A stretch of 33,221 nt of DNA from contig DAOSBJ010000005.1 in the NCBI GenBank assembly GCA_035360795.1, positions 1 through 33,221 on the forward strand. Direction: 5' to 3'. Positions 20,060 through 33,126 of this stretch are shown piece after piece. Position 1 is the stretch's first letter; the number at the start of each line of letters is the position of its first letter. The notes beneath the pieces are model-generated. The model ran no database searches. It had not been told where the DNA came from and saw only the letters and a program-made list of their open reading frames with translations. The position numbers were made by a program, and so were the translations under genes. This stretch comes from Minisyncoccota bacterium. Its GTDB lineage: Bacteria > Patescibacteriota > Minisyncoccia > UBA6257.

Positions 20060-20086
20060 TTAGCACTCTTGACTTTTAATTGCTAA
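20060..20086. promoter_or_regulatory. CIRCE operator (HrcA binding site) at the hrcA promoter
   Basis: TTAGCACTC-N9-AATTGCTAA matches the consensus TTAGCACTC-N9-GAGTGCTAA at 16 of 18 positions. The -35 TTGACT (20069-20074) lies inside the spacer. The -10 TAAAAT is at 20091-20096 after a 16-nt spacer. Confidence 0.8.
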
Positions 20087-23336: not shown

Positions 23337-24326
23337 ATGTTAGAACAAAACACTTCGAAGGGAAGTGATATTTATCGGATTTATAGATTAGCCCAAAAAG
23401 ATATCAAAGGCTTTTATAAATCAATTCTTTTAATCGTAATTCTGGCGGCGATTTTCGCTTTTTTTTCGCTTTTGGCTATAAATACAATTAAAAATTTTAC
23501 TCTTTTTTCTTTAATAAGCAGTGTAATATTGGGACTTTTGGGTTTTGCTCTTTTAACTATCTTCGCTTTATCTGCCGAATCTAAATATATTTTTTTTGGA
23601 TTAATTATTTTTTCTTTTTCTTTCTTTTTGCCTATTTTTTTATTTAAGTTTTTTGAAGTTTATCTTTGGTATGTAATTCTTAGTGTTTTTATTCTTTTAG
23701 GATTGTATTGTTTAAGCATTAAAGGAGAATCAAATGTTTTAATTAATTTGAATTGGCCGCGAATAGTAAAAAAAGGTTCAATTTTTTTAAGTTGGGCAGT
23801 GGTAATTCTGTTAATCTTTTTCTTTTTCTTTGTATTTACTAGCCAAGGTGAAGAAATAAAAAACAAACTTAGCGGGGGTTTAGATTTTGTTTTAAGCCGA
23901 TTTATAAAAACCCCAGAAGGAATAACTTTTTCCGGCACTGTTGACGATTTGCTTAAAGGATTTATTGCAAAACAAAAAGTAGAGGCGCCGGAAAAAACAA
24001 AAAAAACTCTTGAGGAGTCTTTATTGAAAGAAACAAAGGCAAAGTTAAGCGATTTTTTATCAGTGCCTTTAAAAGGAGATGAAAAGATTAGTTTGGTTTT
24101 AATAGATTCTGTATTTAACAAATGGCAAACTCTTTCTCCTGTTTTAAAGTGGGTTTTTTATTTTATTATTTTCTTGATACTTTATTCGCTAGTAAGTTTG
24201 TTTAATTTTGTTTTTTCTTATATAGTGATTATTTTTAGTTGGATGATGAAAGAAATACTGGTAAGTTTGAAAATTGTCAGAACAGAAAGCAAGGGAATAG
24301 AAAAAGAATTTTTAACTTTAGAGTAA
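23337..24326 (+). CDS. Hypothetical polytopic membrane protein
   Basis: 329-aa ORF with roughly 6 hydrophobic helices and a charged central loop. It contains no motif I recognise and sits between dnaK and dnaJ. Confidence 0.55.
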   Translation: MLEQNTSKGSDIYRIYRLAQKDIKGFYKSILLIVILAAIFAFFSLLAINTIKNFTLFSLISSVILGLLGFALLTIFALSAESKYIFFGLIIFSFSFFLPIFLFKFFEVYLWYVILSVFILLGLYCLSIKGESNVLINLNWPRIVKKGSIFLSWAVVILLIFFFFFVFTSQGEEIKNKLSGGLDFVLSRFIKTPEGITFSGTVDDLLKGFIAKQKVEAPEKTKKTLEESLLKETKAKLSDFLSVPLKGDEKISLVLIDSVFNKWQTLSPVLKWVFYFIIFLILYSLVSLFNFVFSYIVIIFSWMMKEILVSLKIVRTESKGIEKEFLTLE

Positions 24327-24360
24327 GAAGTGGAAAGACAATATCATTATTCATTTTTTA

Positions 24361-24517
24361 CCAGTCCAAGTGAATAAGCTCTCGCTACCGTTCGCTCGCC
24401 CAGCGTGCTCGCTCTCTGGCGCTGCTCGCTCGCTCCCGAGCACTCAACTGCGTTGAGTGCTCGGACCATGCCCGCTCGCTCGCAGAGCCGCGCTACGAAC
24501 TTATTCACTTGGACTGG
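24361..24517. other. GC-rich 157-bp island bounded by perfect 18-bp inverted repeats (candidate MITE-like element or structured RNA)
   Basis: ccagtccaagtgaataag (24361-24378) is the exact reverse complement of cttattcacttggactgg (24500-24517). The interior is about two-thirds G+C by hand count, in a strongly AT-rich context. CTCGC occurs 7 times on the + strand. There is a central perfect 13-bp hairpin. Confidence 0.8.
24437..24463. promoter_or_regulatory. CIRCE-like inverted repeat (cGAGCACTC-N9-GAGTGCTCg) upstream of dnaJ
   Basis: It matches the CIRCE consensus at 14 of 18 positions. The inner 7 nt of each half-site (AGCACTC / GAGTGCT) and the 9-nt spacing are exact. The spacer aactgcgtt extends the pairing to a 13-bp stem with a 3-nt loop. 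Confidence 0.5.
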
Positions 24518-24565
24518 AAATAGTTTAATATAAATTGCAGTTGAAGTTCTTACAAATAAAATTTT

Positions 24566-28810: not shown

Positions 28811-28837
28811 TTAGCAATTAAGGTCGAGGAGTGCTAA
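28811..28837. promoter_or_regulatory. CIRCE operator at the groESL promoter
   Basis: TTAGCAATT-N9-GAGTGCTAA matches the consensus at 16 of 18 positions. It starts 7 nt downstream of the -10 box. Confidence 0.8.
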
Positions 28838-32587: not shown

Positions 32588-32965
32588 ATGGCAGAAGAAA
32601 TAAAACAGGAAGAGAAAAAAGAGAGTCCTAAAATGAACGAAAATAAACTTTGGGGAATTTTGAGTTATATCTCTATCCTTTGTTTAATTCCCTTGTTTAC
32701 TAAGAAAGATAATGATTTCGTTTACTTTCACGCAAAACAGGGTTTAGTACTGTTTATTGCAGAAATTATTTGGTATGTCATAACCAGTATTGTGAGTGCT
32801 CTGTTTTTGAAAAATATTGTGGCTCTTTCTATTTGGGGTGTAATTGCTACTTTAGTTAATCTTGGCTTGGTGATTTTAGCAATTTTGGGAATTATTAATG
32901 TTGTTCAGGATAAGAAGAAAGAATTGCCCTTGATTGGAAAATTTAGTGAAAAGATAAAGATTTAA
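32588..32965 (+). CDS. Small membrane protein, DUF4870-like
   Basis: 125 aa. The pattern [35 protein letters not shown] resembles DUF4870 proteins as I remember them. It has 3 TM helices. Confidence 0.5.
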
Positions 32966-33022
32966 AAATAGCTCTCTCTTTCATAAACATAAAGAGGGAA
33001 TAAAAGGAGGAGTCGCATAGTT

Positions 33023-33044
33023 CCGCCTGCCTACCGGCAGGCGG
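33023..33044 (+). other. GC-rich hairpin (9-bp stem, 4-nt loop) in a locally GC-rich intergenic patch
   Basis: ccgcctgcc / tacc / ggcaggcgg. No T-run follows. CCGCCT/AGGCGG strings recur at 33053-33060 and 33115-33124. Confidence 0.6.
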
Positions 33045-33126
33045 ACAGGGGACTAGGCGGTTGATTGTTCTCGATTTATCTAAAATTTATTTAAATTTTA
33101 GTAATAAACGCAATCCCGCCTATAGC

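Follow-up and report, generated by a model that had tools for sequence, protein, structure and literature searches.

A GC-rich foldback insertion upstream of dnaJ in a Minisyncoccota bacterium is probably one copy of a dispersed, low-copy palindromic family

Introduction

Short palindromic repeats have been described in several genomes. The bacterial REP/BIME and REPIN sequences are extragenic palindromes that are thought to act as folded single strands and are linked to mRNA stability. Yeast mitochondria, whose genome is very AT-rich, contain GC clusters and 'byp' elements; these are GC-rich mobile insertions that form hairpins and are also found inside protein genes. Families of the Rickettsia palindromic element (RPE) reportedly encode a conserved peptide. 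The Candidate Phyla Radiation (CPR, Patescibacteria) has tiny, streamlined genomes that are usually held to be repeat-poor. RPEs are palindromic repeats dispersed in a reduced genome and inserted in-frame in unrelated housekeeping genes without destroying them (PMC10969869). The Correia elements of Neisseria and the ERIC sequences of enterobacteria alter mRNA processing via RNase III or RNase E (PMC10969869). Here we analyze a stretch of 33,221 nucleotides from a Minisyncoccota bacterium (contig DAOSBJ010000005.1 of assembly GCA_035360795.1, positions 1 to 33,221; hereafter the window), in which a 157-bp GC-rich island (24361-24517) lies between a membrane gene and dnaJ.

With a probability of roughly two thirds, this island is one copy of a dispersed, low-copy, non-autonomous foldback (palindromic) insertion family of CPR bacteria of the Paceibacteria/'Minisyncoccia' type. 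A sequence-only reading of the window had considered, among other things, an operator of the heat-shock repressor HrcA, a mobile element resembling a miniature inverted-repeat transposable element (MITE), a structured RNA and an artefact of assembly or horizontal transfer.

The island and its reproducibility

The gene order around the island is hrcA-grpE-dnaK-329-aa protein-[island]-dnaJ-ABC-rmuC-groES-groEL. The 329-aa protein, encoded by the membrane gene, has no Pfam domains, and the ATG of dnaJ follows 48 nt past the end of the island. The island is bounded by a perfect 18-bp inverted repeat, CCAGTCCAAGTGAATAAG at 24361-24378 and its complement at 24500-24517 (2 matches versus 0.02 expected), which lengthens to 21 bp if one C/T difference is allowed. 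The G+C content of the interior (24379-24499) is 67.8%, compared with 32.3% for the whole window; the island is the top G+C peak of the 33 kb, and the remaining peaks are RNase P RNA and tRNAs. The interior contains seven CTCGC pentamers. At 24436-24464, a stem of 13 perfectly matched base pairs encloses a loop of 3 nt (cGAGCACTC-N9-GAGTGCTCg). The repeats, the G+C content of about 68%, the pentamer count, this stem and the position about 50 bp upstream of dnaJ in an hrcA-headed operon (hrcA-grpE-dnaK-X-dnaJ) had all been stated from the sequence alone and were confirmed. Folding energies of the two strands are -79.4 and -88.3 kcal/mol (z = -7.7 and -7.6 relative to shuffles).

At least 15 public contigs encode exactly this DnaJ protein, and ten of them were retrieved (ENA, JGI and NCBI assemblies). 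The 239-bp spacer between the membrane gene and dnaJ is the same in 10/10 assemblies apart from four variable sites at 24361, 24379, 24399 and 24432 (columns 35, 53, 73 and 106 of alignment A1). All four lie inside the island, and each is a transition exchanging a G/C base with an A/T base (C/T in three cases, G/A in one). Two of them strike otherwise invariant positions of the family core described below (GCUGGGCG to GCUGGACG and GAGCGA to GAGUGA). These polymorphisms are compatible with an AT-biased decay of a flipped copy. Since ten or more independent assemblies hold the island, the suspected artefact is refuted.

Filled and empty sites at the dnaJ locus

Homologues of the upstream membrane protein form only six clusters, one of them labelled Minisyncoccia, and their loci (handles L011 and following) were compared. 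The closest relative (L011/L012, 84% identity in the upstream protein) has a 7-bp spacer, TAA-AAAAATT-ATG. The spacer comprises 6 bp in a relative with 61% identity (L014-16), while L017 and L018 have short, AT-rich, unrelated spacers. The 24436-24464 hairpin is absent from the orthologous operons of L011, L012 and L014-L020, and the covariance model R1 (see below) found no match in L011, L014, L015 and L017-L019. In the sister species (L013, L025 and L042; 79% identity), the spacer measures 241 bp and contains the same island of 157 bp in inverted orientation. The minus strand of the window and the plus strand of L013 are identical at 143 of 157 positions (91%) without gaps, as opposed to 69% for the same strands. 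The AT-rich flanks are collinear (68% and 75% identity; 45% and 21% if crossed). Because the flanks are collinear and the island is reversed, the breakpoints are the inverted repeats themselves, i.e. 24361-24378 on the left and 24500-24517 on the right. Orientation is fixed per species, with 13/13 sequences of the window species one way and 3/3 of the sister species the other way; these counts are taken from assemblies, which display the majority state only.

DnaK identities among the window species, L011 and L013 are 94.7-94.8%, so that the three are almost equidistant, and the outgroup clade of this trio is without the element. Judged from these comparisons, the distribution would imply a gain in the ancestry of the trio and, at the end, one flip; between the two, either L011 lost the element or the branching order is unresolved. 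The loci show that the element inserted into the gap of 7 bp that separates the membrane gene from dnaJ, on the lineage leading to the window and sister species. The segment between the 18-21-bp perfect inverted repeats flipped after entry and, as a result, the C-rich strand is now in operon sense in the window species. The island is constrained: it is 91% identical between the two species, compared with 56-74% at four-fold-degenerate sites of the flanking genes. The dnaJ site (TAA|...|AAAATT versus TAAAAAAATT) shows no evident direct repeat, and its AT-rich context leaves duplications of 2-3 bp undecidable.

In the same spacer of distant relatives, AT-rich perfect palindromes (TTATCGACTTC-CG-GAAGTCGATAA) and direct repeats were observed (L018:4994-5052 and L017:4997-5083). 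These may be unrelated hairpins or 'solo stems' remaining after core loss.

A dispersed family

One genome per species was searched for a core 20-mer (GCGAGCGAACGGTAGCGAGA), which gave chance matches in three GC-rich coding regions and was found in three CPR genomes with one copy each. Two of these genomes are labelled Wolfebacteria (L024, L026) and the third (L025, Paceibacterota) is the sister species with its own dnaJ-locus copy. In L024 and L026 the core blocks are kept, the closing arms are wholly different and the apical hairpin is different. A second scan, with a two-block pattern over metagenome contigs, yielded 52 loci, 50 of them real, on AT-rich contigs from groundwater, sediments and digesters. 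Together with the earlier copies this amounts to 43 distinct cores. The covariance model R1 was built on 34 members (alignment A2, in which invariant blocks stand out) and scores all copies with 71-115 bits; the core of the window copy (24375-24501, minus strand) reaches 101.1 bits (E = 2e-35). R1 also revealed two additional copies (in L061 and L069) and three weak matches, which represent a sister 'type C' of like architecture and other sequence.

In the window species, a second copy (L060/L077) is flanked by RNase J on one side and pilM/N on the other. Only the inner GAATAAGTTC of the arms is common to both copies. The second copy (L077) has the same apical hairpin with a flipped loop (GCA in copy 1, UGC in copy 2). 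The densest cluster, L040:44-1694, comprises three elements (one type C, two main type) within 1.7 kb on both sides of recA. Other intergenic copies lie between unrelated housekeeping genes (rpoD-alaS, rnc-rpsP, GAPDH-trmD), beside recA or upstream of infA, and by our own tally sense and antisense orientations relative to the neighbours are about equally frequent. An intron-like splitting of genes was considered and rejected, as the examined intergenic copies separate unrelated genes and none of them breaks a gene out of frame.

Given the filled and empty sites, the second copy and about 50 relatives, the MITE-like element comes closest to the evidence among the sequence-only readings. The further suggestion that the element carries a CIRCE (controlling inverted repeat of chaperone expression) does not hold, since no part of the family varies more than the apical hairpin. 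Dispersed copies at non-heat-shock loci were found; a target-site duplication was not evident at the two sites compared.

The family is apparently undescribed. Full-text literature searches turned up no paper on palindromic elements or MITEs of CPR bacteria, nor on the core sequence. The sequence-only reading had recognized no named RNA family, and Rfam 15 gave no match on the island at E<=10 (6S, SRP, HDV-like, hammerhead and twister included), none at gathering score in the window and none on ten further members at E<=1. When compared by BLAST with phage and plasmid collections, the island showed no significant similarity, and scans of 2.9 million viral contigs found no element. The sole exact 20-mer match in the viral contigs (L021) is inside GC-rich phage coding sequence and is due to chance. 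Protein searches with the translated element found only two short open reading frames (ORFs) in a word index and three in a representative library; they are uninformative because the hosts are represented by insert-free cluster representatives.

In-frame insertions

In-frame copies occur inside long ORFs for TsaD, GatA, TGT, MnmA and one unannotated membrane protein. TsaD carries them in the same loop in at least three species. This loop has mostly 15-25 aa among the 120 nearest homologues of the L026 protein, and 33-68 aa in at least 22 of them; judged from these homologues, it is an insertion hot spot. The inserts in TsaD are read in frame 1 in type A (…SGHG…) and in frame 0 in type B (…RAGMV…), other types occur too, and MnmA uses the opposite strand. 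Consequently, the encoded peptide is not the conserved thing. What is conserved is the nucleotide sequence: the cores of L026 and L070 show one difference outside the apical hairpin, though the TsaD proteins are only about 70% identical. Every in-gene copy leaves the frame open, which argues for translation through the insert and not for RNA excision. Compared with the closest insert-free TsaD (74% identity, L081), the core is located at a T-run|A-run junction; no duplication is evident at this site, again in an AT-rich context that leaves duplications of 2-3 bp undecidable. A bias of in-gene copies towards the G-rich strand in sense was also considered, but with only about 5 versus 1 independent events it is not significant.

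K/N/R-rich inserts of 33-67 aa, unlike the core translations, were seen in the same TsaD loop of further proteins (P0083, P0123, P0090, P0074, P0075, P0040, P0061, P0035, P0059 and P0067). Possible sources are decayed copies or other palindromic elements that are AT-rich.

Architecture of the core

On its G-rich strand the core reads GAGCGGGCAUGGU … GCGAGC-N-CGCUGG-GCGAGCGAA. It is GC-rich, comprises about 100 nt and forms a three-way junction of a closing stem, an arm of P2, bulge (GGGCAUGGU) and P3, and the P4 hairpin with its CGCUGG loop. In the window copy, the minus strand is the G-rich structured one and runs in antisense to the dnaK-dnaJ operon. The closing stem is AT-rich, has 15-45 bp and a sequence particular to each copy, with GCGAGG/CCGAGC as a frequent end; in the window its inner part is the 18-bp repeat. 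The palindrome is bigger than the 157-bp island: inverted-repeat search detected imperfect outer arms GTAAGAA...TTCTTAC (GTAAGAAGTGG... and ...GAAGTTCTTAC), so that the whole foldback element extends over about 24323-24553 and fills nearly the entire intergenic region. Its minimum-free-energy fold has 34 pairs around the core. The element size is 157-231 bp; overlapping ORFs are only short chance ORFs, and there is no transposase ORF.

P2 is formed by CUGCGAGC + GAGC (24474-24485) and GCGA + GCGAGCAG (24422-24433), both on the minus strand. Its inner pairs covary between GC, CG and UA across the 34 members, and the helix goes on via G.A, A.G, G-C and C-G; the outer pairs and the tandem G.A pairs are putative assignments made by reading the sequences. 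The bulge between P2 and the apical hairpin (24465-24473, minus strand) is invariant in A2, an invariance biased by the fact that most of the bulge lay within the search pattern. In type C elements, whose detection did not depend on that pattern, this position is occupied by GC(A/U)UGGU. P3, the 'CIRCE-like' palindrome at 24436-24464, is the variable module of the family: its sequence and length are free, very different hairpins are present in L024, L026 and others, and all six aligned pairs covary. P4 (GCGAGC-ACGCUGG-GCGAGC, 24394-24412, minus strand) also covaries. Its helix contains tandem G.A pairs in the main family; in L069b (GCCCGCC/GGCGGGC), L026c and L040c, all of its pairs are Watson-Crick and the loop is unchanged. 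In A2, 90.8% of the cells are paired, compared with 61% in shuffles (0/500 shuffles as high) and 26-41% in slid controls, and 105 cells show double changes versus 41.

Some of the type B copies (L030, L041/L068, L053, L063, L069) have an extra perfect hairpin immediately 5' of GAGCGGGCAUGGU, GCCCCGU(A/C)ACUCAAC-N-GUUGAGU..ACGGGGC, and L035 has an additional hairpin ahead of P4. Therefore, the element accepts modular hairpin insertions. A pseudoknot AGCGGGC/GCNCGCU and an HDV-like fold (hepatitis delta virus) were dropped, as AGC pairs in P2 and CGCUGG is the loop of the covarying P4. A 13-mer of the minus strand, GGCGAGCGAACGG at 24394-24406, also occurs in a conserved part of 23S rRNA (nt 247-259 in E. 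coli); the alignment score is inside the shuffle range and thus the kinship is probably chance.

No terminator and no good sense-strand promoter were seen at the island, only weak promoter-like matches on the minus strand. One of these, TTGTAA-17-TATATT (24555->24527) in the outer arm, is directed into the G-rich strand. Such matches are common in AT-rich DNA, and the three found compare with 1.3 expected. Wholly inside 24379-24499 there is no sigma-70-like promoter; the nearest candidate (24374->24346, minus strand) begins in the left arm and exits the island.

Elsewhere in the window, another unexplained GC-rich patch (32995-33065, peak G+C 0.59) was noticed between the ORF 32588-32965 and tRNA-Ser(GGA). 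It holds a perfect hairpin, CCGCCTGCC-TACC-GGCAGGCGG, without an Rfam match at gathering score, and could be a small RNA or a terminator.

Discussion

Several observations weigh against a simple foldback insertion family. The copy number is low, with 1-3 copies per contig and two in the 298-kb contig of the window species. No transposase, mobilizing gene or consistent neighbour was found near the copies in the flanks examined, and no related autonomous insertion sequence was seen in about 400 kb of flanks. The termini vary and the centre is conserved, the opposite of ordinary MITEs, and both filled/empty comparisons (dnaJ spacer and tsaD) lack an evident target-site duplication. Conservation of the core is far above that expected of decaying selfish DNA in an AT-biased genome, which points to a sequence-specific function. 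In the closing stems, 63 G.U pairs are counted if the G-rich strand is folded and 30 for the other strand, and the conserved tandem G.A motifs exist on the G-rich strand only. This strand preference suggests a folded RNA or single-stranded DNA (ssDNA) rather than inert duplex DNA. Finally, any effect on dnaJ expression is pure inference.

At the dnaJ locus, the foldback element would be a passenger. It is presumably co-transcribed with hrcA-grpE-dnaK-X-dnaJ, because neither a terminator nor a good sense-strand promoter was seen. In the mRNA, the stretch between the membrane gene and dnaJ would then fold into a very stable hairpin, of about -79 kcal/mol. This hairpin could serve as a landmark for RNase III or an exonuclease, which may uncouple the levels of dnaJ and the ABC gene from dnaK in the manner of Correia and ERIC sequences.

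The conserved core leaves some room for a new CPR-specific class of functional nucleic acid, for instance an RNA that processes itself or recruits proteins, or a module of an undescribed mobility system that is recognized as folded ssDNA. We regard this as a tentative possibility. The bulge GGGCAUGGU, the loop CGCUGG and the tandem G.A helices would be its defining parts, and any genomic context, essential genes included, would be tolerated because the activity would reside in the fold.

A functional structured RNA from the G-rich strand, such as a new ribozyme, a protein-binding RNA or a processing signal, is rather unlikely. In this case copies would persist owing to what the RNA does, and the window copy would be expressed antisense to the operon or inactivated by the flip, for which the two single-nucleotide polymorphisms of the window species at otherwise invariant core positions would be a possible sign. 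The helices covary while invariant nucleotides occupy bulges, loops and junctions, the G.A motifs and the G.U excess favour one strand, and the core evolves more slowly than synonymous sites even in coding sequence where the peptide differs by frame. However, a 5-nt indel is mirrored in the two arms when copy 1 and copy 2 of the window species are compared, and palindrome homogenization at the DNA level is its simplest explanation. Templated repair of DNA can keep arms complementary and, therefore, the covariation is no proof of RNA. Intergenic copies are found about equally in sense and antisense, and no conserved promoter or terminator travels with the element. The match TTGTAA-17-TATATT points into the G-rich strand, but it is within chance expectation. 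In addition, the open frames of all in-gene copies are expected of translated insertions and not of excised RNAs.

Even less probable is a DNA-level cis site acting as folded ssDNA, for example a recognition hairpin of HUH/Y1 type or a priming or recombination site, which would also be the means of movement. G.T and G.A pairs are tolerated on one strand only, yet orientation is indifferent to transcription, and the position of the tsaD core at a T-run|A-run junction without a duplication is like that of peel-and-paste elements. The GAGC/GCGAGC repeats are, as we presume, reminiscent of Rep-binding elements. Against this, no HUH, Y1 or Rep gene was present in the flanks examined. There is no conserved target tetranucleotide, TTAC-like ends occur in only some copies, and the element was not found in the viral contigs or in phage and plasmid records.

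Control of dnaJ and the ABC gene by HrcA, through an internal operator or mRNA element, had been suggested by GCACTC-N9-GAGTGC with the correct spacing inside an hrcA-headed operon. By a rough estimate, a half-site of this kind would turn up by chance among about 40 family hairpins with a low probability of about 1%. The CIRCE consensus TTAGCACTC-N9-GAGTGCTAA, searched in the window with up to three mismatches, matches only 20060-20086 upstream of hrcA (TTAGCACTC-N9-AATTGCTAA) and 28811-28837 upstream of groES (TTAGCAATT-N9-GAGTGCTAA). The two sites reported earlier are thus present but not canonical, since each has two mismatches and one imperfect half. Both retain the outer TTAGCA/TGCTAA, which is missing in the island hairpin; its four mismatches to the full CIRCE are all at the outer TT/AA. 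The two imperfect sites suggest that the HrcA of this lineage might chiefly read the outer TTAGCA/TGCTAA. Furthermore, the CIRCE-like site is missing in the closest relatives, one half-site is mutated to GAATGCT in the sister species (L013), and the identical hairpin is present at the RNase J-pilM locus. Kindred stems, CCGAGCAC...GUGCUCGG and CACUCAAC-N-GUUGAGUG, recur in the unrelated members L040b, L030 and L041. We conclude from these sequences that the likeness to CIRCE is in all probability coincidental and stems from the variable apical hairpin P3, and we consider HrcA control highly improbable.

An inverton that phase-varies dnaJ/ABC expression by an invertible promoter or terminator would account for a segment bounded by perfect repeats just upstream of dnaJ, with breakpoints in the repeats and both orientations across two sister species, but it can practically be dismissed: orientation is fixed within species (13 vs 0 and 0 vs 3 assemblies), the interior is without a sigma-70-like promoter, most members lie where a switch would be senseless, e.g. 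inside tsaD or gatA, and the flips of the apical loop (GCA/UGC) are of the same kind and expected from spontaneous repeat-mediated inversion.

If the island belongs to a foldback family as proposed, this family would show selfish or semi-selfish DNA at work in CPR genomes, in the form of a conserved GC-rich foldback element across lineage boundaries. It inserts in-frame in the essential translation-related genes tsaD, gatA, tgt and mnmA under nucleotide-level constraint. It would account for puzzling length variation of CPR proteins and provide a marker for tracking strains and lineages. Annotators should not take the variable hairpin for a CIRCE operator. Should the core turn out to be active as an RNA or ssDNA module, a large and uncultivated section of the bacterial tree would have yielded a new class of structured nucleic acid.

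Comparison with known systems

The core contains short strings, GGCAUGGUCC, CGCUGGGC and GCGAA, which we take to be like those of the genomic HDV ribozyme. Its strand order, however, is not that of a nested double pseudoknot, and CGCUGG is the loop of P4. With the CIRCE/HrcA operator the island shares the inner 6-7 nt per half and the 9-nt spacing. The outer TTA/TAA is lacking, and the motif is conserved neither at the locus nor in the family and occurs at a non-heat-shock locus. The byp elements of yeast are skipped by the ribosome and the frame need not hold, whereas all CPR in-gene copies have an open frame; there is no sequence relationship, and the host belongs to another domain.

In REPINs the arms (REP units) are conserved and the spacer is variable, which is reversed in the CPR family. 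REPINs are also strictly extragenic, usually number hundreds and are accompanied by a RAYT gene, and no RAYT was seen near the CPR copies. Likeness to MITEs is given by the small size (below about 500 bp), the lack of an own ORF, the inverted arms that fold into a long transcript hairpin, the dispersed copies (2 in 298 kb, up to 3 in 3 kb in L040) and the empty orthologous sites (L011, L081). In MITEs, however, the terminal repeats, which are transposase binding sites, are conserved and flanked by target-site duplications, whereas the CPR termini vary with no duplication evident. No parent insertion sequence is known for the CPR family.

For the in-frame insertions, the nearest analogue is the RPE. 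The CPR element is likewise a palindromic repeat of about 100-150 bp that looks non-coding, belongs to a reduced genome and is found between genes as well as in-frame in TsaD, GatA, TGT and MnmA, the window copy itself being intergenic. The two differ, compared by description, in that the CPR core is read in several frames and its peptide is not conserved. The CPR family also has a far lower copy number and is GC-rich in an AT-rich genome. In contrast to RPEs, its arms are specific to each copy and its centre is conserved across distant CPR lineages.

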